Shown in pieces: positions 18,877 to 59,329 of a stretch of 64,000 nt of DNA. The DNA is taken from contig CALLJK010000002.1 in assembly GCA_938091745.1 (NCBI GenBank), positions 26,842-90,841 on the forward strand. The letters are read 5' to 3'. The stretch's first letter is position 1. Every line of letters begins with the position of its first letter. The position numbers were made by a program, and so were the translations under genes. Source of the stretch: Candidatus Bipolaricaulota bacterium. GTDB lineage: Bacteria; Bipolaricaulota; Bipolaricaulia; RBG-16-55-9; DRXL01. The notes under the pieces are model-generated. The model saw only the letters and a list, made by a program, of their open reading frames with translations, ran no database searches and had not been told where the DNA came from.

Positions 18877-18906
18877 TTGACAGGACAGTGCTGTCTCCTA
18901 TATAAT
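18877..18906 (+). promoter_or_regulatory. Near-consensus sigma70 promoter (TTGACA, 18 nt, TATAAT) with a perfect palindrome GACAGTGCTGTC in the spacer, upstream of the protoglobin gene
   Basis: -35 at 18877-18882. Extended -10 TATATAAT at 18899-18906. Palindrome at 18884-18895. Confidence 0.55.
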
Positions 18907-18944
18907 TAGGAATCCTAACTATTACAGACTACAGGAGGCTCGCT

Positions 18945-19526
18945 ATGGCTGTAAATATCCCTGGCTACACCTACGACAGCGCCGCTCCCTCGCCCGTCAC
19001 GCTCAAGGAGCTTGAAGAGCTCAAGAAGGCCGTGCTCTTCACCCCCGAAGACGAAAAATATCTCAAGATGGCCGGCGAAGTCCTGAAAGACCAGATAGAC
19101 GCTGTGTTGGATCTCTGGTACGGCTTTGTGGGGTCGCATCCCCATTTAGTGTATTATTTCTCTGGCCCCGACGGCAAGCCCGACGCGAACTATCTCGCAG
19201 CAGTACGTAAGCGTTTTGGCCAATGGATTCTCGACACGTGCACGCGTCCCTATGATCAGACCTGGCTCAACTATCAGCACGAGATCGGACTGAGACACCA
19301 TCGCACGAAGAAAAACAAGACCGACAACGTGCGCTCTGTCCCCAACATTCCGTTGCGCTATCTGATCGCGTTTATTTATCCCATCACGGCGACGATCAAG
19401 CCCTTCTTAGCGAAGAAGGGGCACAGCCCCGACGAGGTTGATAAAATGCACCAGGCGTGGTTCAAATCGGTGACGCTCCAAGTCGCGTTATGGAGCTGTC
19501 CGTATGCCAAAGACGGGGATTTTTAA
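18945..19526 (+). CDS. Protoglobin (single-domain globin of the globin-coupled-sensor lineage)
   Basis: Very high similarity, from memory, to Methanosarcina acetivorans protoglobin. Shared blocks IPGYTY, WYGFVGSHPHLVYYF, YLAAVRKRF, EIGLRHH and YPITATIKPFLA. Confidence 0.8.
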   Translation: MAVNIPGYTYDSAAPSPVTLKELEELKKAVLFTPEDEKYLKMAGEVLKDQIDAVLDLWYGFVGSHPHLVYYFSGPDGKPDANYLAAVRKRFGQWILDTCTRPYDQTWLNYQHEIGLRHHRTKKNKTDNVRSVPNIPLRYLIAFIYPITATIKPFLAKKGHSPDEVDKMHQAWFKSVTLQVALWSCPYAKDGDF

Positions 19527-28577: not shown

Positions 28578-29438
28578 ATGCGCTCTGTATCGCTTGCCCC
28601 TGGACTGGAGTTGATAGACCTCGCACTCTTCTTGCCTAGGATGAGAGCGCTTGCTATCGCTGACATTCACTTGGGGATTGAAGACGCTCTCAAAGACGAG
28701 GGCGTTCTCGTGCCCAGACAGCATCTTGCCCAAGTGCAGCAGAGATTGGAGCGCATCTTCAAGGAGCTTGCTGTCACGCCCTCGGAGCCGTTACAAAAAA
28801 TAATAATTAATGGCGACCTGCGCCATCAGTTTGGCCCGCTCTCGCGCGTCGAACATAAAGAATCCAAAGAATTCTTGCGCTGGCTTGCTAACTGGACAGA
28901 GCAGATCGTGCTGGTTGAGGGCAATCACGACGGCTCGCTGAAACACTTTGCTAACGAACGCATCACGGTGACGAAACGCTATAGCGAAGGGGACTGCTGG
29001 TTCGTGCATGGGGATGAGGCCCTCACCCCCAGGCTTCGCCTGGACCGTCCATCTTCGCCAGCCTCTGGCTGGCGAAGGCAAAGCCCATGCGCAGCGTGCC
29101 CCAAGGGCGGGGTGAGGGCCTGGCTCGTCATCGGCCATGAGCACCCTGCTGTAGGCTTGCGCGATCCCGTCACCGGGCGCACAGAAGTTTATAAGTGCTT
29201 TCTCGTCGGAACTTTTCGAGAGTACGATCTCTTAGTCTTGCCGTCGTTCAATCAGCTCGTGCGGGGAAGCGATCTGCTCAGAGAGCAGCCCCTCTCACCG
29301 TTTGTGCAGCAGAGCGAACTCGAAGAGTTTTCAGTCTACGTTGTCTCCGATGACGGCTCTCTCTACGAATTTGGCCCTCTACGCCGATTGTTCCATTCCT
29401 CCTCCCTCTCCCCTGTGAGGGAGAGGGGCAGGGGGTGA
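28578..29438 (+). CDS. Calcineurin-like metallophosphoesterase carrying an in-frame palindromic-element insertion
   Basis: DIHLG, GDLRH, GNHD and VHGD motifs. Start taken as the Met at MRSVSL (28578), before the DIHLG motif; the ORF track starts at 28515 inside glnS. Residues encoded by the element are LTPRLRLDRPSSPASGWRRQSPCAACPKGGVRA. Confidence 0.75.
   Translation: MRSVSLAPGLELIDLALFLPRMRALAIADIHLGIEDALKDEGVLVPRQHLAQVQQRLERIFKELAVTPSEPLQKIIINGDLRHQFGPLSRVEHKESKEFLRWLANWTEQIVLVEGNHDGSLKHFANERITVTKRYSEGDCWFVHGDEALTPRLRLDRPSSPASGWRRQSPCAACPKGGVRAWLVIGHEHPAVGLRDPVTGRTEVYKCFLVGTFREYDLLVLPSFNQLVRGSDLLREQPLSPFVQQSELEEFSVYVVSDDGSLYEFGPLRRLFHSSSLSPVRERGRG
29018..29120. repeat. Family-1 palindromic element (12-bp TIR GGCCCTCACCCC/GGGGTGAGGGCC, internal 11-bp hairpin CTTCGCCAGCC/GGCTGGCGAAG) inserted inside the metallophosphoesterase CDS without breaking the frame
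   Basis: ~90% identical to the intergenic copy at 40600-40703. Confidence 0.8.
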
Positions 29439-29444: not shown

Positions 29445-30722
29445 ATGACCTACGAAGCGATGCTCCAGAAGCTTTATAATCTGAAGGGCACCGGGCTTGA
29501 TTTAGAACGCATTTTAGGTCTATTAGGGAACCCGCACAAAAGCTTTCGCGCGATTCGCGTCGCCGGCACCAACGGCAAGGGCTCGGTCTGCGCGTTTTTA
29601 GCGCAGATCTTGCAAGAAGCGGGCTTTCGCGTCGGGCTGTTCACCTCGCCCCATCTTGTCTATCCCGAAGAGCGCATATGCGTCAATGGGCGTGAGATCT
29701 CGCACGAGGAGTTTCACGCCCAGTTTGAGCGCATCTGGGCCGTGATCGAAGAGCTGTACGGAGACAGAAGCGAAGAGCACGCGCGGTTCTTTGAAGTGTT
29801 GACGCTCATGGCGCTCGATTACTTTCGCCAGCAAAAAGTAGACTGGGCGGTGATTGAGTGTGGTGTGGGCGCGCGCACTGACGCTACACGAGCCATTTCA
29901 GCGCCCGTCGCTGTCCTGACGAACGTAGAGCTCGACCATCGCGAATCGCTCGGGGAGACGATCGCGCAAATCGCGTATCAGAAAGCTGCTGTCGTCTCCG
30001 AGGGGGGACTGTTGATCACAGCTGAGTCCAAGCCCGAAGCGCTCGCGGAGATTGAACGCGAGTGTCGGCTGAAGAACGCGCGGCTTCTCCAAGTCGATCT
30101 CTCAAGGCTACAAGCGAAATCAAACAGTTGGGAGGGCCAACGCTTCGACTGGCGCGATTGGCGAGACTTAGAAATTTCGCTCTTAGGAAGCTACCAACTG
30201 CAGAATGCCGTCTTGGCTGTAGAAGCTATGGATGCTTTAGGCGAGCACGTTGTTCCTGAGAGCGCGATTCGCGCAGGGCTGCACACAGCGCGCTGGCCTG
30301 GTCGGATGGAGTTGCTCTGCAAAAACCCCTATGTTATGCTAGACGGGGCGAAGAACCCTGCGGGGATGCGGGCGCTGCGCACAGCGCTCTCCCCACTGGA
30401 ATACGAACGCTGTATAGTAGTCTTAGGGATATCTGATCGCAAGGACGCAGCAGCCATGATCCAAGAGATCGTGCCGGCAGCTGATAGAATAATCGTCACG
30501 CGCGCGGCGTTCCGTGGGGTCGATCCAGAATATTTAGCCTCTTTGATTCGGCCCTCTGGTGTGCCGTGTACTGTTATCTCAAGATCAGATAGAGCCATAG
30601 AATTGGCCCTCGCTCAAGCACACCACCGCGATCTCATCTGCGTGACCGGCTCGCTCTTTCTCGTGGGCGAGATCCGAGCCTGGTGGAAAGGACAGGAGCA
30701 TTCTTGTAAGAATTCTCATTGA
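29445..30722 (+). CDS. folC: Bifunctional folylpolyglutamate synthase / dihydrofolate synthase
   Basis: Mur-ligase family. Motifs VAGTNGKGS, and DGAKN/DGAHN-like. Confidence 0.88.
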   Translation: MTYEAMLQKLYNLKGTGLDLERILGLLGNPHKSFRAIRVAGTNGKGSVCAFLAQILQEAGFRVGLFTSPHLVYPEERICVNGREISHEEFHAQFERIWAVIEELYGDRSEEHARFFEVLTLMALDYFRQQKVDWAVIECGVGARTDATRAISAPVAVLTNVELDHRESLGETIAQIAYQKAAVVSEGGLLITAESKPEALAEIERECRLKNARLLQVDLSRLQAKSNSWEGQRFDWRDWRDLEISLLGSYQLQNAVLAVEAMDALGEHVVPESAIRAGLHTARWPGRMELLCKNPYVMLDGAKNPAGMRALRTALSPLEYERCIVVLGISDRKDAAAMIQEIVPAADRIIVTRAAFRGVDPEYLASLIRPSGVPCTVISRSDRAIELALAQAHHRDLICVTGSLFLVGEIRAWWKGQEHSCKNSH

Positions 30723-31071
30723 GAACTTACAGCTCTTTGGTCATCACGGCGTGCACGAGCATGAACGCGCACACGGTCAACTCTTTGCTATTGACGCGGA
30801 GCTTGAATTCGATCTTCCCCCAAAAGACGAGCTTTCGGAGACTGTGGATTACGTTCGAGTGATCGAGCGGATTCGCGCCGTGAACGAATCGAGCTCGTTC
30901 TCTCTAATAGAGAGATTTGCCCAGGCCATCGCCGAGGAGATCTTACGAAATTTTTCTCAGGTGCAGCGCGCACGGGTGCGCGTGCGCAAGCTCCATCCGC
31001 CCTTGCCCTCGGATATCACGGTGGGGGCCGTAGCCGCGGAGGTGACCTGCGATCGCTCACGCTTATATTAG
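30712..31071 (+). CDS. folB: Dihydroneopterin aldolase (start codon non-canonical / uncertain)
   Basis: ILIENLQLFGHHGVHEHERAHGQLF aligns with the FolB N-terminus, including the YGYHGV block. The frame opens at 30646 and has no ATG, GTG or TTG before that conserved N-terminus. The only GTG (30751, ORF-track start) lies within it. Candidate starts are ATT at 30700, 30712 or 30718. Confidence 0.7.
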   Translation: MLIENLQLFGHHGVHEHERAHGQLFAIDAELEFDLPPKDELSETVDYVRVIERIRAVNESSSFSLIERFAQAIAEEILRNFSQVQRARVRVRKLHPPLPSDITVGAVAAEVTCDRSRLY

Positions 31072-31084
31072 CTTAGGCTCCAAC

Positions 31085-31552
31085 GTGGGCCATCGAGAAG
31101 AGCAGATTCAAAGAGCTGTGAGTGCTCTGGCTCACACCCCCTCTATAAAGATCTGTCGGCAAGCAGGGCTCTACGAGACCGAACCCGTGGGCATAGAAGA
31201 TCAGCCATGGTTTCTCAATACCATCGTCGAGATCGAGACTGACCTGACTCCGCGCAAAGTATTAACGGTCTGCAAAGAGATTGAGCGCGCGCTCGGGCGC
31301 CAAGAGCGCCCACGCTACGGTCCGCGCGAGATCGATTTAGATATTCTCCTGTACGATCACTTAATCATAGATGATCCGGATCTGAAGATCCCTCATGCGC
31401 AGCTGCATCAGCGACGCTTCGTGCTGGTGCCGCTGGCAGAGCTTGCGCCGCACTACGTGCATCCTGTGCTCCACAAGACCATCACGGAGCTCCTCCAAGA
31501 GCTGACTGACCCCAAGGAGGTGAGGCCCTACGGTCACGGAGATTCTCATTGA
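31085..31552 (+). CDS. folK: 2-amino-4-hydroxy-6-hydroxymethyldihydropteridine pyrophosphokinase (HPPK)
   Basis: YGPREIDLDILLY and PH..L..R.FVL.PL.E motifs. Confidence 0.88.
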   Translation: MGHREEQIQRAVSALAHTPSIKICRQAGLYETEPVGIEDQPWFLNTIVEIETDLTPRKVLTVCKEIERALGRQERPRYGPREIDLDILLYDHLIIDDPDLKIPHAQLHQRRFVLVPLAELAPHYVHPVLHKTITELLQELTDPKEVRPYGHGDSH

Positions 31553-32744
31553 GACAGTCGCCCCAGCGACGCGCATCGCGCTCCTCGAAGACGGACGTCT
31601 TATGGAGATCCACTATGACAACCCGGAGCGCATCTTGGGCAATATCTATAAGGGGATCGTGCGCGACATCTTGCCGGGGATCAATTCAGCATTTGTCGAC
31701 GTAGGACTCGATGAAAAACTTTTCCTTTCCATGAAAGAGCTCAGCGATACCCTATGGAAGGAGCATCGTGGTCGGAAGGGGCAGAACCCGCAGATCCAAA
31801 AATTACTCAAGAGTGGCCAACAGATCATTTTGCAGGTGAAGCGCGAGGGTATTGGCACAAAGAATCCCCAAGGGACGATGAAGATTAGCCTTCCTGGACG
31901 CTACTGGGTCTTTTTGCCTGTGGATGAGCGCTTGGGGGTCTCACGACGTATCACCGATGAGCATGAGAGCCGACGTCTCAAAAGAATTGCCAAGAAGCTC
32001 AAGCGCGAAGGAGAGGGACTGATTGCGCGTACTGCCGCTGCTGGCGCTTCTGAAGAAGACCTCGAACGAGACTTCAATTATCTTTTAGGGACATGGAAAG
32101 GGATCGAAGAGCAAGCACAGCGCGTGAAGGCCCCAGCGTTGCTCTATCGTGGGCCGGATCTTGTGCGCGCCTTCTTGCGCGATCGGTTAATAGAAGACGT
32201 CAAGCGCGTGGTAGTCGACAGCGAGCGCGTCTATCAAGAGATCAAAGATTTTCTCTCGTACATGCACATGGAAGAGTTCTTGGATCGCATCGAGCTGTAT
32301 CGTGGGAAGCGGCCGCTCTTTGAGGCCCGCGGGGTGGAGAAGCAATTGCGAGAGAGTTTGCAGTCGCGGGTGCGTCTGCCCGGCGGCGGTTCTCTCGTGA
32401 TCGCTGAGACAGAAGCGCTCACGGCCATTGACGTGAACACCGGCAGCGATATCAAGCACAAGGACCAAGAGCAAGCGATTTTGAACACAAACTTAGAAGC
32501 TGCCGTAGAAATCCCACGACAGTTACGATTGCGCAAGCTCAGCGGGATTATTATTGCTGATTTTGTGGACATGAAGCGCCACGATCACGTCGAGAAGGTG
32601 ATTCGGAAGCTCCAAGAAGAGCTGAAGAAGGACCGGGTACCTGCGGACTTTGTGGACATCACGAAGTTAGGGTTGGTGGAGATCACGCGCAAGCGCGAGG
32701 GGGAGAGTTTGCTAGGCATGCTGGAGGAGGAAGAGGAGACTTGA
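31542..32744 (+). CDS. rng: Ribonuclease G / RNase E-family endoribonuclease (start non-canonical / uncertain)
   Basis: S1 domain, DNase-I-like and Zn-link regions. The conserved N-terminus ILIETVAPATRIALLEDGRL precedes the first ATG (31602). The frame opens at 31524. Candidate ATT starts are at 31542 and 31548. Confidence 0.75.
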   Translation: MLIETVAPATRIALLEDGRLMEIHYDNPERILGNIYKGIVRDILPGINSAFVDVGLDEKLFLSMKELSDTLWKEHRGRKGQNPQIQKLLKSGQQIILQVKREGIGTKNPQGTMKISLPGRYWVFLPVDERLGVSRRITDEHESRRLKRIAKKLKREGEGLIARTAAAGASEEDLERDFNYLLGTWKGIEEQAQRVKAPALLYRGPDLVRAFLRDRLIEDVKRVVVDSERVYQEIKDFLSYMHMEEFLDRIELYRGKRPLFEARGVEKQLRESLQSRVRLPGGGSLVIAETEALTAIDVNTGSDIKHKDQEQAILNTNLEAAVEIPRQLRLRKLSGIIIADFVDMKRHDHVEKVIRKLQEELKKDRVPADFVDITKLGLVEITRKREGESLLGMLEEEEET

Positions 32745-32779: not shown

Positions 32780-32854
32780 GGGCGCATAGCTCAGCGGGAG
32801 AGCGCCTGCTTCACACGCAGGAGGTCCGAGGTTCAAGTCCTCGTGCGCCCACCA
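32780..32854 (+). tRNA. tRNA-Val (anticodon CAC), CCA encoded
   Basis: Cloverleaf can be read directly. Acceptor GGGCGCA/TGCGCCC. D-arm GCTC-AGCGGGA-GAGC. Anticodon arm CCTGC-TTCACAC-GCAGG. T-arm CGAGG-TTCAAGT-CCTCG. Total 75 nt. Confidence 0.9.
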
Positions 32855-34475: not shown

Positions 34476-35357
34476 TCAAGCCCTCGCGCGATTGATTGCT
34501 TCTCTGAGGGCTATCGCGGCCTCGCGGGCAGCTTGTGCAAAGTCTTCGCCGTGGGAGGCAAAAATCACACTCCGTGAAACGTTTATGATCGCGAGTTCTT
34601 TGTAAGAATTCACGCTGTTCTTGATGGCTTGGGCGAGATCGCCTGCTTGCGCACCCACGCCCGGCACTAAGATAGGCATCTCGTCGCCCACGATCCGACG
34701 AACGATTGCTAATTCATCCGGGGCTGTCGCTCCGACGACGACTCCCACGTTCTTGCGCGTGTTCCATTCGCGGGCTTTCTCGGCCACGTACTGGTAGAGA
34801 GGCTTGCCTTCCTCACCCTCACCCCTCGAGCCCCCTCTCCCCTCCGAGGGAGAGGGGAAGGGGTGAGGGGGCAAGCAGTTGAGTTCTTGGAAATCTCGTG
34901 CTCCGGGATTGGAGGTGCGCACCAGAAGAAACGCGCACTTGTCTGAGTACTCTAAAAACGGTGCGACGGAGTCGAAGCCCATCAAGGGATTGACCGTCGC
35001 GGCGTCGAAGCGATAATACTCAAAGAGCGCTTTAGCATAAGCCCGCGCCGTATTTTCGATATCTCCGCGCTTGGCGTCCCCAATGACGGGGATCTCTGTG
35101 GGGATCAGCTCACGCGTTTTATAGAGAATCTCTAGCCCCACCGGGCCGAGCATCTCATAGAATGCGAGATTGGGTTTATACGCGCAGACGAGATCGCTCG
35201 TCGCTTCGATGATCGCCTTGTTAAACTCTAAAACAGCGTGAGCGCCGTGGCGCTCTCGCAGGAACGCTGGAATTTTTGAAAGCTCTGAATCAAGCCCGAT
35301 GCAAAGCCAACTGTTATTCCGGTGCGCAATCGCACACAGCTTGTCAAGAAAGCCCAT
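34476..35357 (-). CDS. pyrF: Orotidine 5'-phosphate decarboxylase (type 2) carrying an in-frame 25-codon palindromic-element insertion
   Basis: LCIGLD, VIGDAKRGDI and RTSNPGA motifs. The inserted segment CLPPHPFPSPSEGRGGSRGEGEEG lies between the RTSNPGARDFQEL and KPLYQYV blocks. Confidence 0.85.
   Translation of the reverse strand: MGFLDKLCAIAHRNNSWLCIGLDSELSKIPAFLRERHGAHAVLEFNKAIIEATSDLVCAYKPNLAFYEMLGPVGLEILYKTRELIPTEIPVIGDAKRGDIENTARAYAKALFEYYRFDAATVNPLMGFDSVAPFLEYSDKCAFLLVRTSNPGARDFQELNCLPPHPFPSPSEGRGGSRGEGEEGKPLYQYVAEKAREWNTRKNVGVVVGATAPDELAIVRRIVGDEMPILVPGVGAQAGDLAQAIKNSVNSYKELAIINVSRSVIFASHGEDFAQAAREAAIALREAINRARA
34802..34876. repeat. 75-nt nested palindromic element (TIR GCTTGCC/GGCAAGC, outer CTCACCCCT/AAGGGGTGAGG arms, inner CCCTCTCCC-CTCCGA-GGGAGAGGG hairpin) inside pyrF. 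It contains a G-quadruplex-type G-run array.
   Basis: Read directly. The segment CCTCCGAGGGAGAGGGGAAGGGGTGAGGGGGCAAG recurs identically at 63350-63386. Confidence 0.8.
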
Positions 35358-51772: not shown

Positions 51773-51868
51773 CGCTCACCAGGCTTCGCCTGGATCGTAC
51801 ATCGTGCCGTCTGCGGCGGCACGGTGAACAGTCCAGACGAAGTCTAGGGCGAAGCCTGGAAGGGGAGG
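51773..51868. repeat. Variant palindromic element (12-bp TIR CCAGGCTTCGCC/GGCGAAGCCTGG) sharing its 5' arm with family 1. Its 3' end provides the SD (GGGGAGG) for ftsW.
   Basis: AGGCTTCGCCTGGA(T/C)CGTACATC is shared with the 29031 and 40613 copies. GGGGAGG lies 7 nt before GTG 51876. Confidence 0.65.
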
Positions 51869-51875
51869 TGCGCAC

Positions 51876-53030
51876 GTGGGCACGTCACAGCTGGTCATGG
51901 TGGTTCTCGCGCTCTCTCTGCTAGGCGTGGTCATGGTCGCCAGTGCCAGCTTGCCCATCGCTGCCCTTCGCTACGAGCAGCCCTCGTATCTTCTCGTCAA
52001 GCATCTCATCGCTCTTGCGCTGGGGCTCATCGCCTTCTGGGTCTGCTCCAAGATAGAGTATCACGTCTTTTTCAGAATAGATCATATACTTTTGCTGACA
52101 GCCCTGGGGTTGACCCTCCTGACGCTCATTCCCGGCTTGAGCGTGCGCGGCAGTTGGCTGCGCCTCCCTGGGCCCTTCCAGCTTCAGCCCACGGAGTTCT
52201 TGAAATTCGCTCTGATTATCTCGTTCGCGGCGTTCTCTGTGCGGAAAGGGGAGCGCATCAAAGCATTCTCCGAAGGGGTCTTGCCCGTGCTCATTCTCAC
52301 GACTTTTGCAGCCCTCATCGCGCTCAAGCAATCCGACTTCGCCATGGCGCTGATCTTTCTGCTCATAGCCCTCTATATGCTGTTTATTGGAGGTGCACGA
52401 CTGACCCATCTCTGCGGGGTCGTCTTGGCTGCTACGCCCGCCTTGGCTCTGTTGTTGATCACCGCTCCGTATCGCTTCGGCCGACTCTTAGCATTCTTAG
52501 ACCCGTTTAAATACAGCACGACCGAGGGCTATCAGCTCATTCAGTCGCTTACTGCTCTTGGGTCCGGAGGGATCTTCGGGCGCGGCTTGGGCGAGAGTCG
52601 AGCAAAGCTGCTCTTTCTCCCAGAACCGTATAACGATTTTATCTTTGCCATCATTGGAGAGGAGCTCGGCTTGCTCGGTGGGCTCCTCGTCCTAGGGCTC
52701 TTCGCGTATCTCTTATGGGTAGGCTATAGCATAGCATACCGCGCGCCAGATCAATTTGGGATGCTGCTCGCTTCGGGGATAACGTTCACTATTGTAACCC
52801 AAGCTGCGATCAACGTAGGTGTTGCTTCGGGGATACTGCCCGTGACGGGCTTGACGTTGCCGTTCATCAGCTATGGCGGCTCGTCGCTTGTCGTTTCGTT
52901 GGCCATGGCCGGAACTTTGCTGAACATTGCGCGAAAGGGATCAGATGAAGACGTTTCTCGTCTGTGGGGGCGGGACGGGAGGCCATCTCTATCCCGCTCT
53001 CGCTACGCTAGAAGGGTTACGGCGCACTGA
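51876..53030 (+). CDS. ftsW: Peptidoglycan glycosyltransferase FtsW (SEDS family)
   Basis: 10-TM SEDS protein heading the dcw cluster. The C-terminal tail overlaps murG by ~86 nt. Confidence 0.8.
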   Translation: MGTSQLVMVVLALSLLGVVMVASASLPIAALRYEQPSYLLVKHLIALALGLIAFWVCSKIEYHVFFRIDHILLLTALGLTLLTLIPGLSVRGSWLRLPGPFQLQPTEFLKFALIISFAAFSVRKGERIKAFSEGVLPVLILTTFAALIALKQSDFAMALIFLLIALYMLFIGGARLTHLCGVVLAATPALALLLITAPYRFGRLLAFLDPFKYSTTEGYQLIQSLTALGSGGIFGRGLGESRAKLLFLPEPYNDFIFAIIGEELGLLGGLLVLGLFAYLLWVGYSIAYRAPDQFGMLLASGITFTIVTQAAINVGVASGILPVTGLTLPFISYGGSSLVVSLAMAGTLLNIARKGSDEDVSRLWGRDGRPSLSRSRYARRVTAH

Positions 53031-54078
53031 GCCAAGCTCTCGACTCGTGTATGTAGGCAGCCGCTACGGGCTCGAGACGCACGTGCTGCCGCGATACCCT
53101 TGGATTGAATTTTATCAGCTCCCTATTCGCGGGATTGCTCGGCCGGGCCAGCGCAAACTTTGGGCGCTCTGGGCGCTCCTGGCGATCGCACAGCTTCCGA
53201 TCGCGCTCGTCAAAGCTCTCGTGATTCTCTTCAAAGTGCGTCCCACAGTAATTATCGGTTTTGGAGGATATGGGGCATTTGCCCCGCTTGCGTGGGGAAC
53301 TCTCTTGGGGATTCCGCTCTTTCTCCATGAGCAGAATCTCATTCCCGGGATGGTGACGCGACTCTTTGCCCCCTGGGCAAGAGGGGTCTTTCTCACGTAT
53401 CCCCAAACGGCCCGCTATCTGCGGGCACGGCGCGTCATCGTGACCGGACTGCCCGTCCGCCCAGAGATTCTCTCCGCTTGCCCCGCCCATAAACAGTTCG
53501 GCTTGCACTCTGAGAGAAAGACCGTCCTGGTCTTTGGGGGCAGCAGAGGATCACAAGTTCTGATAGACGTTGCGCTCGCAGCACAACAATATCTGAGTGA
53601 TGTCCAGTTTCTGATCGTTACGGGATCTCACTCTTCAGTTTCCTTCTCTCAAGGGGAGAGGTCAGTTCTCGTCCCCTATATTCACGAGATGGGCAGAGCT
53701 TTCGCAACAGCTGATGTCGTCATCTGTCGCGCTGGCGCCGCAACACTAGCAGAACTCGCGGCCGTGGGCAAGCCGGCAATAGTTGTCCCTTGGCCAGGCG
53801 CTGCAAACGATCATCAGACAGCGAACGCGAGGGCTTACGCCCATCTTGGAACTTTTTCCGTAGTCCCAGAGTCTGAACTCACCCCTCAACGGCTCGTTGA
53901 GGAGATCCAGAAAGCTCTCACCCAGAGCCCTACTTCTCGTCGCGCAGGGCATGGCGAGGGAGCACTGAACTCTATCTTGCGCGAGGTGCTTTCTGATGCG
54001 ACCAAAGAGCACGACACAGCTCCACTTTCTTGGGATCGGCGGCGACGGCATGAGTGGGTTGGCCAAAGTCTATTCTGA
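52945..54078 (+). CDS. murG: UDP-GlcNAc:undecaprenyl-PP-MurNAc-pentapeptide GlcNAc transferase
   Basis: GGGTGGHLYPALA N-terminus and GT28 C-terminal domain. Start taken at Met 52945. Confidence 0.85.
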   Translation: MKTFLVCGGGTGGHLYPALATLEGLRRTEPSSRLVYVGSRYGLETHVLPRYPWIEFYQLPIRGIARPGQRKLWALWALLAIAQLPIALVKALVILFKVRPTVIIGFGGYGAFAPLAWGTLLGIPLFLHEQNLIPGMVTRLFAPWARGVFLTYPQTARYLRARRVIVTGLPVRPEILSACPAHKQFGLHSERKTVLVFGGSRGSQVLIDVALAAQQYLSDVQFLIVTGSHSSVSFSQGERSVLVPYIHEMGRAFATADVVICRAGAATLAELAAVGKPAIVVPWPGAANDHQTANARAYAHLGTFSVVPESELTPQRLVEEIQKALTQSPTSRRAGHGEGALNSILREVLSDATKEHDTAPLSWDRRRRHEWVGQSLF

Positions 54079-55390
54079 GCTGGGATGGCGCGTCACCGGC
54101 TGCAATATCGAAGAGAACCGACGCACCCAGCAGCTCCGCGCCTTGGGCATCCCTATAGCTATTGGGCATGAGCGCGCTCATCTCCAACACGCTACCCATC
54201 TCATCGTCTCCTCAGCCATCCCTTCAGATAATGTTGAGCTGCTCGAAGCGCAGCGTCTTGGGTTGCCCATCCTCCATCGGCTCGACCTGTTAAACGAGCT
54301 TACGAAGCACCGCTACACTATTGGGATAGCAGGCACACACGGCAAGACTACCACGACAGCCATGATCGCAACACTTCTAGAGCGTGCCTGGCTCGACCCG
54401 ACGTTCGTGATTGGCGCAGCTTCCCCCACATTGGGCACCCATGCCCGTCTGGGCTTGGGACGATATCTTGTCGCTGAAATCTGCGAGAGCGACGGGCGCT
54501 TCGTGCAGATTCGTCCTAACATCGCTGTCATCACGAATATCGGGCGGGATCATCTCAATTTCTATGGGAGCGAAGCAGCTCTCTTCGAGAGCTTCACGCG
54601 CTTTGCCCGCCAAAGCGAGCTGTGCATCGCGTGTGCCGATGACCCTGGGGCACGCCGTGCTATCATCGAGCGCATTCCTACAGCGCTCACCTATAGCATC
54701 GAACGCCCCGCAGACTTAGTCGCCCACGATATAGCGTTCTCTCAATTCCATACGACATTTGAGATCTCCTGGCACGGACGCCGTACCGGGAGAGTCGAGT
54801 TGCTCCACACCCCTGGTATCCATAACGTCTACAATGCCCTCGCAGCAATGTTAGCCGGTCATACCCTGGGGCTGGACTTCGATGAGATGGCAGCACACCT
54901 GAGAGATTTTCAGCTTCCGGAGAGACGCTTCCAAGTCCTTGTCAATAACGGCATCACGATTATTGACGATTACGCGCACTTGCCCGAGCAGATCCAACGC
55001 AACCTCCAAGCGATCCGCCAGAGCTGGCATCCGCCACGGATCATCGCGCTCTTCCAGCCCCACCGTTTTACACGCACGTACTATCTGGGACAAGAATTCA
55101 GCACCGCGTTCGATCTCGCTGATAGAGTCATTCTCACTGATATCTATCCGGCGTTTGAGCGCCCTATTCCGGGGGTAGGGATCGGGCTTATTATTGAAGC
55201 TCTGAAACGCCGCCACAGAGACGTCACCTACGTGCCTCGTGGGGAAGACTTCGCCCCCCGCGTGCAGAAGCTCTTACGCCCTGGGGACTTTGTCATCGGC
55301 TTTGGCGCGGGTGATCTGGGTACAGAGCTCTCTCGTCTGGCTCAAGTCTGGAACGCCCAGAAAGGGGAAGGCCATGGAAAAGCTCTCTAA
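53996..55390 (+). CDS. murC: UDP-N-acetylmuramate--L-alanine ligase
   Basis: HFLGIGGDGMSGLA and GTHGKTTTTAM motifs. Confidence 0.88.
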   Translation: MRPKSTTQLHFLGIGGDGMSGLAKVYSELGWRVTGCNIEENRRTQQLRALGIPIAIGHERAHLQHATHLIVSSAIPSDNVELLEAQRLGLPILHRLDLLNELTKHRYTIGIAGTHGKTTTTAMIATLLERAWLDPTFVIGAASPTLGTHARLGLGRYLVAEICESDGRFVQIRPNIAVITNIGRDHLNFYGSEAALFESFTRFARQSELCIACADDPGARRAIIERIPTALTYSIERPADLVAHDIAFSQFHTTFEISWHGRRTGRVELLHTPGIHNVYNALAAMLAGHTLGLDFDEMAAHLRDFQLPERRFQVLVNNGITIIDDYAHLPEQIQRNLQAIRQSWHPPRIIALFQPHRFTRTYYLGQEFSTAFDLADRVILTDIYPAFERPIPGVGIGLIIEALKRRHRDVTYVPRGEDFAPRVQKLLRPGDFVIGFGAGDLGTELSRLAQVWNAQKGEGHGKAL

Positions 55391-56291
55391 AGAACTCCAA
55401 AGCCGAGTGCGTGGCGTGGTCAAGACCCATGAGCCCCTGGCACGACATACGTCGCTGCGTATTGGCGGTCCGGCAGATTACTTTGTCATCCCCGTCTGCG
55501 TAGAAGATATCTTAGAAACGTTAGAGTTCATCCGTGAGCACGGCTTACCCTGGATAGCTTTAGGCAACGGCACCAATGTGCTCTTCCTCGATGAGGGCTA
55601 CCGCGGGGTGATTATCAAGCTTGGGCCAAGTCTTGGGCACATAGAGACCCTCCAGAACAGCGTGCGCGCCCAAGCAGGGGCGAGCTTGGCGGCTCTCATC
55701 TCCCATGTCCGTTCCCTGGGCTTGCGTGATCTCGACTTTCTTGTGGGAATCCCCGGAAGCGTTGGAGGAGCTCTGGTGATGAACGCGGGCATCCCCGAAG
55801 GAACCATCTCCGACGCGGTCATCCAGGTAGGGGCATTGACTTTTGACGGAAAATTCATTACGCTTAAGGGTGACGAATGTCGGTTCGGCTACCGGTCGAG
55901 CCGGTTCCAGCAAGAACGACTCATCGTGATTGAGGGAGAATTTGCCTTGGGAAGAGGGAAATCGTGGGATGGTGAAGAGTTGCTCAGACGGCGCAAGGAG
56001 CGCCAACCCCTCGGGGTGCCCAGCCCAGGCTGTGTCTTTCGCAACCCAGTGGGGGTGGGGGTTACAGCAGGACAGCTCATTGACCAAGCGGGACTGAAGG
56101 GCTACCGCGTGGGAGGAGCGCGAATATCCCCAAAGCATGCGAACTTTATCGTCAACGAAGGGGGGGCGACCAGCCGCGACGTCCTCCAGCTAATTGACAT
56201 CGCCCGGTCGGTTGTGCTTAAATACTGGGGGGTGGAGTTGAAGCTGGAGCTCGCCGTCGTTGGAACGTGCGGCGCGCAGTATTCTTTATAG
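55371..56291 (+). CDS. murB: UDP-N-acetylenolpyruvoylglucosamine reductase
   Basis: FAD-binding domain (RIGGPADYF) and MurB C-terminal domain. Start at Met 55371 with a GGGGAAGG SD. Confidence 0.85.
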   Translation, partial: AMEKLSKELQSRVRGVVKTHEPLARHTSLRIGGPADYFVIPVCVEDILETLEFIREHGLPWIALGNGTNVLFLDEGYRGVIIKLGPSLGHIETLQNSVRAQAGASLAALISHVRSLGLRDLDFLVGIPGSVGGALVMNAGIPEGTISDAVIQVGALTFDGKFITLKGDECRFGYRSSRFQQERLIVIEGEFALGRGKSWDGEELLRRRKERQPLGVPSPGCVFRNPVGVGVTAGQLIDQAGLKGYRVGGARISPKHANFIVNEGGATSRDVLQLIDIARSVVLKYWGVELKLELAVVGTCGAQYSL

Positions 56292-56944
56292 TAGCGGTCA
56301 TCGGGCTTGTGCTGGCACTGCCGTGGCACAAGTACTTAGCAATACGAGAGATCACCGTCGAGGGTGGTGAGAGGATCCAAGCCGAGACGGTCCTACAGAG
56401 CTTGCCCATTACCGTGGGAATGAATTGGCTGACGGCCGATACCCAGGCCGCCAGAGCAGCTCTCTTGCGCCTCCCCGACGTTCGTGATGCTCGGATCAAA
56501 AAGAGACTATGGGCACAGATAGAGATTCGCGTACACGAGCGAGAGCCGTTGATCCTGGCCCGCTTGGGCCAAAAGCTCTTCTGGGTCGACACCGAGGGGT
56601 TCCTTTATGCCCCCTCTCAAGGGGGTTTCGGCCCGATCCTCGTCGAACCCCAGACCGTCGAGACCGAGCGTGGCCGACGCCTCGCCGAGCTCTTCTATCT
56701 CGTCCCGTTGAAAGCCCTGATGACCAGCCCTGGAAATCTTCTCAACTCGATTACAGCAATCCGATTCGAAGGGAGCACTATGATTCTGTCTTTGCGGGAT
56801 GGCCCGGATGTAGCCGTATATATCTATGATGTCCGGTGGGAATTGGCACGACTTCAGCGGGTCCTGAGCGCCCTGGCAGGGCGCCACCTGCGGCGGATCG
56901 ATCTGCGGTTTGAGCGCGCAGTGATTCTTCAAGCTCATCCGTGA
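56267..56944 (+). CDS. ftsQ: Cell division protein FtsQ/DivIB (POTRA domain)
   Basis: N-terminal TM. POTRA region IREITVEGGERIQAETV. Position is between murB and ftsA. Confidence 0.75.
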   Translation: MRRAVFFIVAVIGLVLALPWHKYLAIREITVEGGERIQAETVLQSLPITVGMNWLTADTQAARAALLRLPDVRDARIKKRLWAQIEIRVHEREPLILARLGQKLFWVDTEGFLYAPSQGGFGPILVEPQTVETERGRRLAELFYLVPLKALMTSPGNLLNSITAIRFEGSTMILSLRDGPDVAVYIYDVRWELARLQRVLSALAGRHLRRIDLRFERAVILQAHP

Positions 56945-56960
56945 ATGGGGTGATGAGGGA

Positions 56961-58220
56961 ATGGGGGAGATCATTGTCGGTCTAGACATAGGCACCACCA
57001 AGGTGGTCGCCCTAGTCTGTAATGTCGAGGACGGCCAGATCGAGATCATCGGCATGGGGAAGGCCCCCTCTCATGGCCTTGAAAAAGGGGTCGTCGTCGA
57101 CATCGGCGAGACGACGGCTTCTATCAAGCGCGCCATCGAAGAAGCTGAGAACATGGCCGATGTCAAGATCGAGCGCGTCTACGCCGGTATCGCCGGGAAA
57201 CACATCTCTTCAATTAACAATTCTGGCACAGTCTCGATCTCCCGCGAGAATCGCATCATCACTGTAGAAGACGTCCAGCGGGTGATCGACACGGCTCAAG
57301 CGGTGCAGATTGCTCCAGATAGTCAGCTTATTCACGTTATCCCACGCCAGTATATCGTCGACGGCCAAGAGGGGATCACCGACCCAGTAGGCATGATCGG
57401 GACACGCCTTGAGGTCGATGTGCACATCGTGACCGGCTCGATCACCGCAGTACACAATATCCGTCGCTGCGTGGAAAACTTAGGGATCGAGGTCGAACAG
57501 ATCGTGCTCCAGCCATTGGCTTCGTCCTATGCCGTGCTCAGCGAAGCCGAGAAGGAGCTTGGGGTCGCGCTCATGGACATCGGGGGCGGCACAACAGATA
57601 TTGCGATCTTCCGCGATGGCGATATCTGGTTCAGTAAGATCCTGCCCATAGCCGGCGAGCATATCACCAACGATATCACGGTAGGATTGCGAGTCAGCTA
57701 CGAAGAGGCCGAGCGCATCAAGATTCAAGAGGGGCTTCCTCGGATCACCGACGAGGCCGCGGAAGAAGAGCGCATCGAGGTCACGACCATCAGCGAGGAG
57801 AAGAAACTCATCTCCAAGAGGAAGCTCGCCAAGATCATCGAGCCCAGATTAGAAGAGCTCTTCGATTTAGCGATGGGCGAGATCGAGGACGTCGGCTATC
57901 GCGATCTCATCCCTGCGGGGATCGTTCTGACGGGAGGCACATCGCTCTTGAAAGGGTTGCCGGAGTTCGTCTCCGAGCGTTATGACATCTCGGTGCGACG
58001 CGGTCTTCCCCCTCAAGGGATTCACGGGTTGCGCGATATTGTCGAAAGTCCCATCTATTCGACAGTCATTGGCTTAGTGAAGTACGCTGTGGAGTCAAAG
58101 GAGTATCGCTACCGAGAGCCATCGCGTCGCTACTGGAGCGTCGCGCGTCCTCAGAACAAAGGGTTCAGTGGATTATTTGGGAGGCTGTTGCGCTGGCTCA
58201 ACCGGTTCTTCCGGGGTTAG
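56961..58220 (+). CDS. ftsA: Cell division protein FtsA
   Basis: Actin-like ATPase motifs VGLDIGTTKV and MDIGGGTTDIAIF. Confidence 0.9.
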   Translation: MGEIIVGLDIGTTKVVALVCNVEDGQIEIIGMGKAPSHGLEKGVVVDIGETTASIKRAIEEAENMADVKIERVYAGIAGKHISSINNSGTVSISRENRIITVEDVQRVIDTAQAVQIAPDSQLIHVIPRQYIVDGQEGITDPVGMIGTRLEVDVHIVTGSITAVHNIRRCVENLGIEVEQIVLQPLASSYAVLSEAEKELGVALMDIGGGTTDIAIFRDGDIWFSKILPIAGEHITNDITVGLRVSYEEAERIKIQEGLPRITDEAAEEERIEVTTISEEKKLISKRKLAKIIEPRLEELFDLAMGEIEDVGYRDLIPAGIVLTGGTSLLKGLPEFVSERYDISVRRGLPPQGIHGLRDIVESPIYSTVIGLVKYAVESKEYRYREPSRRYWSVARPQNKGFSGLFGRLLRWLNRFFRG

Positions 58221-58228
58221 GGGGTTTT

Positions 58229-59329
58229 ATGAGCCGAGGCGGATTGGCACGGATTAAAGTGATCGGCGTTGGGGGTGGCGGGGGCAACGCCGTTGACCGC
58301 ATGAAGAAGGCCAAAGTCAAAGATGTCGAACTGATCGCGGTCAACACCGATGCCCAGGTGCTCTCGATCATCGAAGCGGACCGCACTGTTCAGATTGGGG
58401 CGAAGCTCACCGCGGGATTGGGGGCTGGGGGAAACCCAGAGATCGGGCGCAAGGCCGCCGAGGAGTCCGAAGCCGAGCTTGCAGCACTCTTAGAAGACAC
58501 CGATATGGTCTTCTTAACCGCAGGGATGGGCGGGGGCACCGGTACTGGGGCTGCGCCGGTTATTGCGCGCTTGGCTCGCGAAGCCGGCGTGCTCACCGTC
58601 GCTATTGTGACTAAGCCGTTCTCGTTCGAAGGGCGGCTGCGAGCCGAGCGCGCCAAGAAGGGCATCGAAGAGCTCAAACAATATGTCGACACGCTCATCG
58701 CCATCCCCAACGATAGACTTTTGAAAGTCGCCCCGCCGGAGATGCCCTTAGTTAAAGCGTTCGAGCTCGCCGATGAGATATTGCGTCAGGGCATCCAGGG
58801 GATCTCCGATCTCATCACGACCCCAGGGATGATCAATCTCGACTTCGCTGATATCGAGTCGACGATGCGCAACGCCGGGACGGCGCTTATGGGCATCGGC
58901 GAAGGCGAGGGCGAGAACCGCACTCGTGACGCCGCACGCAACGCGATCACCAGCCCACTCTTGGAAGGCTCCATCGAGGGCGCTCAGAAGCTCATCTTAA
59001 ACATCACCGGTGGGCCAGATCTCTCCCTTGAAGAAGTCACTGAAGCGGCTTCACTCATCCGGGATACGCTCTCCGATCAAGCTGATATCTTCTTTGGTGC
59101 CGTGGTGCGCGAGGGCTTCGAGCGCGTGCGCATCACTGTGATCGCCACGGGGTTCAAGGAGCGCGAAGAACTCTCCAAGGAAGAGAAGCTCGAGCGTGGC
59201 ATCGAGATACTCGACGAAGAGGACGAAGAAGAGCTGATCGAGAAGGTCGAGCGCAGCATCCGCAAGGATCGCGCCCGCTCCGACGATTGGGATATCCCGA
59301 CATTCTTACGCAAGCGCAAGAACGACTAA
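58229..59329 (+). CDS. ftsZ: Cell division GTPase FtsZ
   Basis: Tubulin signature GGGTGTG and T7 loop NLDFAD. Confidence 0.93.
   Translation: MSRGGLARIKVIGVGGGGGNAVDRMKKAKVKDVELIAVNTDAQVLSIIEADRTVQIGAKLTAGLGAGGNPEIGRKAAEESEAELAALLEDTDMVFLTAGMGGGTGTGAAPVIARLAREAGVLTVAIVTKPFSFEGRLRAERAKKGIEELKQYVDTLIAIPNDRLLKVAPPEMPLVKAFELADEILRQGIQGISDLITTPGMINLDFADIESTMRNAGTALMGIGEGEGENRTRDAARNAITSPLLEGSIEGAQKLILNITGGPDLSLEEVTEAASLIRDTLSDQADIFFGAVVREGFERVRITVIATGFKEREELSKEEKLERGIEILDEEDEEELIEKVERSIRKDRARSDDWDIPTFLRKRKND

Follow-up and report, generated by a model that had tools for sequence, protein, structure and literature searches.

Absence of canonical start codons from three overlapping cistrons, folB, folK and rng, of a Candidatus Bipolaricaulota operon, and their probable initiation at near-cognate codons

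A 64-kb stretch of contig CALLJK010000002.1 from a Candidatus Bipolaricaulota bacterium (hereafter the window) carries on its forward strand an operon of four serially overlapping genes, folC, folB, folK and rng. The closest homologues of its RNase G are found in Candidatus Bipolaricaulota/Acetothermia metagenome-assembled genomes. The gene order folC-folB-folK-rng is kept in the window's clade, and folB-folK-rng or folK-rng alone is kept across much of the phylum. The first gene, folC, was on the list of open reading frames (ORFs) and matches Pfam Mur_ligase_M and Mur_ligase_C. At all three junctions the downstream gene lies in the +1 frame relative to the gene before it. The features of the locus, with overlaps and lengths in nucleotides (nt) and amino acids (aa) counted from the proposed starts, are as follows.

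29445..30722, + strand: folC (folylpolyglutamate synthase), with an ordinary ATG start
30688..30698, + strand: purine-rich Shine-Dalgarno (SD) region for folB in the folC coding sequence, AAGGA at 30688-30692 and AGGAG at 30694-30698
30700..31071, + strand: folB (dihydroneopterin aldolase), proposed ATT start at 30700-30702, 123 aa, 23-nt overlap with folC
30712..30724, + strand: first copy of a 13-mer, ATTCTCATTGAGA (ATT CTC ATT GAG A), coding I-L-I-E of FolB strand 1 and holding the folC stop
30720-30722, + strand: folC stop TGA, within the folB I-E codons
31038..31045, + strand: SD sequence GGAGGTGA for folK within the coding sequence of folB; the TGA it contains is an in-frame stop and closes the folK frame
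31052..31552, + strand: folK (HPPK), proposed ATC start at 31052-31054, 166 aa, 20-nt overlap with folB
31069-31071, + strand: folB stop TAG
31514..31523, + strand: SD sequence AAGGAGGTGA for rng, coded by a conserved FolK K-E-V; its TGA closes the rng frame
31530..32744, + strand: rng (RNase E/G family), proposed ACG start at 31530-31532, 404 aa, 23-nt overlap with folK
31542 and 31548, + strand: ATT codons that are alternative start candidates for rng
31542..31554, + strand: second copy of the 13-mer (ATT CTC ATT GAG A), coding I-L-I-E of RNase G strand 1 and holding the folK stop
31550-31552, + strand: folK stop TGA

The identity of the three downstream genes is clear. FolB matches Pfam FolB (PF02152) with 106 bits over profile positions 1-111 of 113, FolK matches Pfam HPPK (PF01288) with 139 bits over positions 1-116 of 116, and RNase G matches Pfam RNase_E_G (PF10150) with 327 bits over positions 1-269 of 270, all above the gathering threshold. 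Homologues of all three in the PDB were found with E-values of 1e-17 to 1e-73.

From the in-frame stop upstream to the conserved N-terminus of the protein, none of the three genes has an ATG, GTG or TTG codon. An earlier note on this DNA had reported this for folB and rng, and the frame coordinates were reproduced: the folB frame opens at 30646 with GTG 30751 as its first canonical codon, and the rng frame opens at 31524 with ATG 31602 as its first. The folB/folK junction, absent from that note, likewise has no canonical start, the folK frame opening at 31046 and the first canonical codon being GTG 31085, so that three consecutive genes are affected. The note's further claim that the conserved N-termini begin at the junctions also holds. 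Position 1 of the FolB profile falls at ATT 30712, upstream of GTG 30751, and position 1 of HPPK falls at 31064 (A-Y-I-S-L-G-S-N), upstream of GTG 31085. The Pfam RNase_E_G domain begins further downstream in rng, and N-terminal conservation is shown there by homologue alignments instead. Elsewhere in the window, among some 30 ORFs whose frame is open for 9 or more codons ahead of the first canonical start, Pfam placed no domain before that start. Even ftsZ, whose frame is open for 81 codons before its first ATG, has a Tubulin domain that starts after that ATG. Within the window the anomaly is thus specific to the folB-folK-rng operon, and these roughly 30 normal ORFs rule out relaxed start-codon usage throughout the genome. 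Because the missing canonical starts are conserved across independent assemblies and are not seen in the other window ORFs, they are not attributable to chance.

The comparison extends to 118 related loci (L001-L118), 80 of them orthologous loci from species-representative genomes and 38 from metagenomes. Codons of folB and rng are numbered from the first Ile codon of I-L-I-E as 0, so that -4 stands four codons before it. Public collections hold FolB, FolK and RNase G from this genome as truncated forms only, of 106, 155 and 380 aa against about 123, 166 and 404, and gene callers output such forms across the clade. Were these the real proteins, translation would start at GTG 30751, GTG 31085 and ATG 31602. 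The segments that they lack include ILIENLQLFGHHG, AYISLGSN and ILIETVAPATRIALLEDGR; they hold profile position 1 of FolB and HPPK and align with structured N-terminal strands of solved enzymes. In that frame the segments are under strong purifying selection: the rng codons 0, +2, +3 and +4 show 81/0, 56/0, 32/0 and 112/0 synonymous/non-synonymous pairs, and folB and folK behave similarly. None of the three canonical codons has an SD match. The truncated forms are therefore most improbable as the true products, and the comparison supports the view that the downstream genes must initiate at non-canonical codons. The explanation judged best, and held to be probable, is that the three overlapping cistrons start at weak near-cognate codons behind strong SD sequences.

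Calibration on ordinary genes of the window gave strong SD matches at an aligned spacing of 4-10 nt, most commonly 6-8. The two longest SD matches in the whole 64 kb, of 8 and 10 nt, are those before folK and rng, and neither is followed at a usable distance by a canonical codon. A scan for long ORFs headed by a near-cognate codon with a strong SD before it returned, at gene starts, folK and rng only; the other hits (33489, 38955, 39827, 52393 and 57282) are internal to genes. RNA folding at the three junctions did not differ from shuffled controls (z = -0.70, +0.39 and +0.81), and an Rfam search for a tetrahydrofolate (THF) riboswitch or a frameshift element found neither, its sole match being a tRNA-Val.

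The case is strongest for folK. Its SD sequence GGAGGTGA, the second-longest match in the window, is encoded by the conserved FolB residues A-E-V and has no canonical start at a spacing of 4-11 nt. The arrangement GGAGGTGA-N6-ATC places ATC 31052 at an aligned spacing of 9 nt, with the in-frame TGA three codons before it. This ATC stands four codons before Y-I-S-L-G-S-N, and nearly all other Bipolaricaulota have an ATG four codons before the corresponding [YF]-[IL]-[GS]-L-G-S-N. The ATC is invariant in an 11-locus sub-clade that includes the window, as is GGAGGTGA. Co-occurrence is perfect, the ATC going with the 20-nt folB/folK overlap in these 11 loci and an ATG going with an intergenic spacer in 12 close relatives. 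Translated from ATC 31052, the predicted FolK, (M)AHAYISLGSNVGHR, is in register with solved HPPKs. Initiation of folK at ATC 31052 is thus very likely.

For folB the candidate is ATT 30700. The AAGGA of its purine-rich region lies at an aligned spacing of 5 nt to this codon, inside the calibrated range. An ATT stands four codons before ILIENL in all 17 close loci that have no canonical start (five codons before it in L011 and L087, which have one extra codon). In an alignment of 13 of these 17 loci the ATT at -4 is invariant and the surrounding codons vary freely in both frames; the folC His codon that overlaps it is always CAT and never CAC. Three loci (L013-L015) have ATG ATG at -4 and -3, aligned with the window's ATT 30700, and in three others (L002, L085 and L086) the folB frame opens just one codon before the -4 ATT. 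Six close relatives retain an ATG or GTG at -2, and most distant lineages have ordinary starts. On this distribution the canonical folB start is lost solely within the window's clade. The product predicted from ATT 30700 begins (f)MLVR, followed by ILIENLQLFGHHGVHEHER, which Arg precedes, and it matches the N-termini of the Staphylococcus aureus and Mycobacterium tuberculosis dihydroneopterin aldolases residue for residue. A folB start at ATT 30700 is accordingly thought likely, with less assurance than that of folK.

The start of rng is the most finely balanced of the three. Its SD sequence AAGGAGGTGA is the longest match in the window and is invariant in close relatives except L008, which retains a 9-nt core, AGGAGGTGA. 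ACG 31530 follows it after 6 nt, at an aligned spacing of 9, the same as for the folK ATC. ATT 31542 and ATT 31548 lie 21 and 27 nt away from AAGGAGGTGA, and near ATT 31548 there is only a 4-nt GGAG. All 23 close relatives share the ACG at -4 (31530-31532). In the window's sub-clade the TGA of the SD sequence stands two codons before the ACG, which is the sole codon in the interval within one base of AUG. The codons that follow evolve as protein-coding sequence of rng: the -2 codon is ACG, ACA or ACC, with 71 synonymous against 33 non-synonymous pairs in the rng frame, and the -1 codon is GAG or GAA, with 32 against 0. At both positions the two other frames are almost entirely non-synonymous. 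This constraint in the rng frame at -2 and -1 argues that translation begins upstream of -2. The tail of FolK is read in different frames in the two sub-clades owing to an indel, and yet CCT-ACG is kept in both. From ACG 31530 the predicted RNase G, (M)VTEILIETVAPATR, is in register with Escherichia coli RNase E.

The folK codons that overlap the ACG are unusual as well. In the window's sub-clade this codon is Tyr TAC in 15 of 15 loci; TAT, which is the genome's preferred Tyr codon (63%), would create an ATG. In the sister sub-clade it is Leu CTA, the rarest Leu codon at 4%. Because the overlapping codon is always TAC and not the preferred TAT, or else the rarest CTA, selection appears to keep the rng start weak. 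One locus (L012, 98% RNase G identity) has a GTG at rng -2, which suggests that start codons turn over quickly here.

Several points weigh against ACG. The -3 codon of rng varies non-synonymously (V/I/T), a GGAG lies 6 nt before ATT 31548, and two loci (L011 and L087) have AAGGAG-N6-ATT-GA at that position. We know of no conserved natural ACG start in bacteria, and ACG is outside the set of codons with documented natural use. It also falls in the class giving 0.1-1% of AUG output in E. coli, where Met-initiated protein was still detected by mass spectrometry (bioRxiv 10.1101/063800). Initiation of rng at ACG 31530 is therefore rated at about an even chance or slightly under, and AUU 31548 or AUU 31542 is a live minority candidate, for rng only.

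The earlier note had put the start sites of folB and rng elsewhere, within the 13-mer shared by the two junctions. The 13-mer is indeed present at both, the first copy beginning at 30712 and not at 30711 as had been given, and the window has no other copy. Here folC ends AAT TCT CAT TGA and folK ends GAT TCT CAT TGA. The folB frame reads I-L-I-E-N-L-Q-L-F-G-H-H-G-V (ILIENLQLFGHHGV) and the rng frame I-L-I-E-T-V-A-P-A-T-R-I-A-L-L-E-D-G-R-L (ILIETVAPATRIALLEDGRL). Since ATT followed by GAG automatically makes a TGA in the overlapping frame, the shared SH* ends of FolC and FolK are not an independent feature. Repeats of this length are common in the window, whose + strand has 94 independent exact repeat pairs of at least 13 nt against about 30 expected at random, and with this genome's codon usage two independent encodings of I-L-I-E are identical with a probability of about 0.03. 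The 13-mer occurs in 6 of the 118 related loci, at folB only in five (L004, L009, L082, L110 and L116) and at rng only in L115; none of the 118 has it at both junctions. It is thus best read as a coding coincidence and not as a functional element, a by-product of both proteins opening their first beta-strand with I-L-I-E and of the window using the same codons for it.

The proposal attached to the 13-mer was that folB and rng start at an AUU within it (ATT 30718 and 31548, or 30712 and 31542), coupled to the overlapping UGA as ATTGA. That geometry is present in the window, and Huber et al. 2023 mention that ATT could form 5-nt overlaps of the ATTGA type (PMC10666635). The GGAG before ATT 31548 and the AAGGAG-N6-ATT-GA of L011 and L087 are in keeping with it at rng, as is at folB the position of the folC stop, which is kept relative to folB in 20 of 21 close relatives and is at +8 also in L004 and L006. 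The stop/start overlap (ATT 30718, ATT 31548) is nevertheless not conserved among relatives. Of 23 close relatives, 18 have ATC as the rng +2 codon; the TGA is then lost and the folK stop falls anywhere from +4 to +74 nt. For folB, three relatives (L003, L007 and L008) have CTT at +2, and L008, L011 and L087 have CTC or CTT at position 0; these codons are not near-cognate in every relative, and the -4 ATT is. Starts in the 13-mer would also shorten strand 1 relative to solved homologues, and the constraint at rng -2 and -1 implies a start further upstream. Initiation within ATTGA is consequently unlikely, and the 13-mer fails as a functional unit: a search for further copies yielded no third one in the window and no relative with two. 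What stands of the proposal is the need for non-canonical initiation; its site does not, better-conserved candidates lying upstream at ATT 30700 and ACG 31530.

The 13-mer can also be viewed as an imperfect palindrome, TTCTCA-T-TGAGAA, which might be a protein operator or a hairpin gating both junctions. Its arms are present (as a minus-strand match), and the first copy falls in a possible hairpin at 30706-30733, GUAAG-AA-UUCUC-AUU-GAGAA-CUUAC, extended by a GGAGC/GCUCU pairing that would mask AGGAG. Its folding energy is no better than that of shuffled controls (z = -0.70) and its arms are not conserved in relatives; at rng the element is not conserved, few loci carry the 13-mer anywhere, and it varies at third codon positions, as coding sequence does. 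A regulatory role of this kind is hardly credible.

Programmed +1 frameshifting that fuses the cistrons into fusion proteins had been named in the earlier note as the alternative to initiation, and it does prove the weaker of the two. The +1 relation is the same at all three junctions, natural FolB-FolK fusion enzymes exist (for example 2cg8, matched by both the FolB and the FolK query), and in the window a CCC-U quadruplet precedes ACG 31530. Against this, no shift-prone site is conserved, CCC-T being CCA-T or CCG-T in L004, L082, L084, L011 and L087, and the sister sub-clade, with folK in another frame, would need a different shift. Orthologues with spacers or with ATG/GTG starts initiate independently at homologous codons. 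Frameshifting would, moreover, leave unexplained the strong SD sequences at spacings appropriate to starts, and it goes with neither an Rfam frameshift element nor a significant RNA structure. An SD inside the gene, a stop at UGA and a +1 shift to the downstream frame are shared with prfB. The SD of prfB, however, lies 3 nt before the UGA, and here the distance is 27 nt with no conserved slippery codon by the stop. Fusion by frameshifting is thus extremely unlikely, and initiation at near-cognate codons is preferred.

The pattern at rng reaches well beyond the window's clade. The adjacency of folK and rng is conserved across Bipolaricaulota, and the ribosome-binding site of rng is coded by the FolK C-terminal K-E-V or K-K-V. 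Past this motif the FolK tail is unconstrained and differs in length and even in reading frame. Among 101 distinct rng junctions, 65 offer no canonical start anywhere from the opening of the frame to the I-L-I motif. Across the phylum the codon that stands in frame at a suitable distance from the best SD is ACG in 31 cases, ATC in 23, ATT in 21, ATA in 5 and CTG in 3. One Bipolaricaulota subclade has a classical ATGA overlap at folK/rng, and in other lineages canonical rng starts are 1-2 codons off rather than at the identical codon.

Two groups of junctions are especially informative. In group B (AAGGAGG-N5-ACG) the ACG is invariant and is followed by [KR]-G-N-H conserved through synonymous changes. 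The constraint in the FolK frame stops at the Arg codon over the ACG, and the constraint in the rng frame starts just after it (G 120/0, N 108/21). An in-frame stop stands directly before the SD in 6 loci of this group, and in at least 18 the ACG is the sole near-cognate codon available. In group C (GAAGGTG-N5-AT[CT]) the ATY codon shows synonymous changes only (78/0), and the three codons after it are hypervariable, with changes that are nearly all non-synonymous. This pattern reads as the signature of a start codon with a free N-terminal tail. It is tentatively proposed, at somewhat less than an even chance, that most Bipolaricaulota RNase G is initiated from a conserved codon other than AUG, GUG or UUG after an SD encoded by FolK, with ACG used in two clades and at about 30% of the distinct junctions, and that selection keeps this start weak.

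Under the preferred explanation a single mRNA from the + strand would carry the overlapping folC-folB-folK-rng, with each downstream ribosome-binding site within the 3′ end of the upstream gene. fMet-tRNA would initiate inefficiently at AUU 30700 for folB, at AUC 31052 for folK and most likely at ACG 31530 for rng. In E. coli AUU, AUC and AUA give 1-2% of AUG output (bioRxiv 10.1101/063800), and IF3 discriminates against near-cognate starts and participates in re-initiation (PMC2268962). Each start would lie 17-20 nt upstream of the preceding stop, so that upstream translation would pass over the site and some coupling is plausible. Because overlaps of 20-23 nt are longer than those shown to support termination-reinitiation (PMC10666635), such coupling can be put forward only as an inference. 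The outcome would be that two folate enzymes and RNase G are made at a low, throttled level, probably sensitive to IF3, and the likely purpose a small and constant supply of enzymes of which little is required, as for pcnB. Comparative sequence analysis, the basis of all these results, shows that canonical starts are missing, that the candidate codons are conserved, how the SD sequences are spaced and that the constraint is frame-specific; which codon starts each gene, the coupling and the regulatory purpose are deduced from this. The length of the overlaps weighs against this explanation, as do two properties of the data. The candidate codons all lie in doubly coding sequence, where the overlapping gene may explain part of their conservation, and the loci are phylogenetically related, so that pairwise counts overstate the number of independent events.

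The closest precedents are infC and pcnB, the only confirmed non-canonical starts in E. coli (bioRxiv 10.1101/063800). Both use AUU, a conserved near-cognate start that limits output and is discriminated by IF3 (bioRxiv 10.1101/063800, PMC13009471); the genes are essential or dosage-sensitive, and pcnB, like rng, encodes an enzyme of RNA metabolism. They are, however, single genes with experimentally mapped N-termini, whereas here three consecutive overlapping cistrons are known from sequence, with AUC and possibly ACG among the codons and no evidence of autoregulation. The S. aureus genes cvfC1 (AUU), ccpN (AUA) and infC (AUA) share with the present cases conserved non-canonical starts and a long SD at proper spacing (PMC13009471). 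The natural conserved AUU and AUA starts of that species all have extended SDs and give about 10% of AUG output (PMC13009471). Those sites were mapped by Ribo-Ret and reporter assays, the ones proposed here by sequence comparison.

A further difference concerns the origin of the long SD sequences, which in folK and rng are coded by the conserved FolB A-E-V and FolK K-E-V and are found in ATG-start lineages as well. They thus probably did not evolve specifically to compensate for a weak codon. An extended SD as specific compensation was considered and found unsupported: motifs of the GAGGTGA type also precede folK where other lineages start it at ATG, and in group C the rng loci that have ATY starts show only a 5-nt AGGTG match. 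Termination-reinitiation at overlaps of 4 nt or 1 nt resembles this operon in its serial same-strand overlaps, and the window's ATTGA is the theoretical ATT case (PMC10666635). It differs in that overlaps of 20-23 nt exceed those for which reinitiation has been shown and that ATTGA is not a conserved arrangement at rng. Weak near-cognate starts with a strong SD before them are already known from infC, pcnB, ccpN and cvfC1, of which folB, folK and rng would be new members. The unusual features are the succession of three such genes within a single operon, the persistence across the phylum at rng and the possible ACG. Within the literature open to searching, no account of this arrangement was found, nor any work on start codons in Bipolaricaulota or on non-canonical starts of RNase E/G.

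Other features of the window may be recorded here. A tRNA-Val(CAC) gene at 32780-32854 lies on the same strand 36 nt 3′ of the rng stop and may be co-transcribed with an RNase that could process it. Two copies of a 25-nt G/C-rich palindrome, CCCTCTCCCCTGTGAGGGAGAGGGG, lie at 29404-29428 and 34833-34857, with 0 and 2 mismatches where chance expectation is none. The first falls at the 3′ end of a metallophosphoesterase gene immediately before folC, and the second is within the pyrF ORF, where it codes part of a Pro/Ser/Gly/Glu-rich, insertion-like stretch (PFPSPSEGRGGSRGEGEEG). It appears to be a small dispersed repeat tolerated inside coding sequence. A division and cell-wall cluster of ftsW, murG, murC, murB, ftsQ, ftsA and ftsZ with short inter-gene overlaps occupies 51828-59329, and a protoglobin-family gene lies at 18906-19526 (Pfam PF11563, 132 bits).

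The starts bear first on annotation. A large fraction of the Bipolaricaulota records in NCBI, JGI and Logan have RNase G beginning at the internal Met of MEI(H/Y)Y. Such calls (P0002-P0015, P0024, P0026 and others; the P0124 cluster) cut about 24 residues from the N-terminus, the first strands of the fold among them. Structure prediction, family models and metabolic reconstruction inherit the truncation error.

Very few non-canonical starts have been confirmed in bacteria. The run of three genes, together with an rng start that persists across the phylum, offers a natural system for asking why weak starts persist and how SD and overlap compensate for them. If ACG is truly the start of rng, it would extend the set of start codons that bacteria use naturally and conservatively. 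If the proposal for the phylum as a whole is also true, Bipolaricaulota would have a phylum-wide, probably IF3-sensitive throttle on RNase G and bacteria a conserved family of natural ACG start codons, and in one genus the same strategy would have spread to two upstream folate genes.

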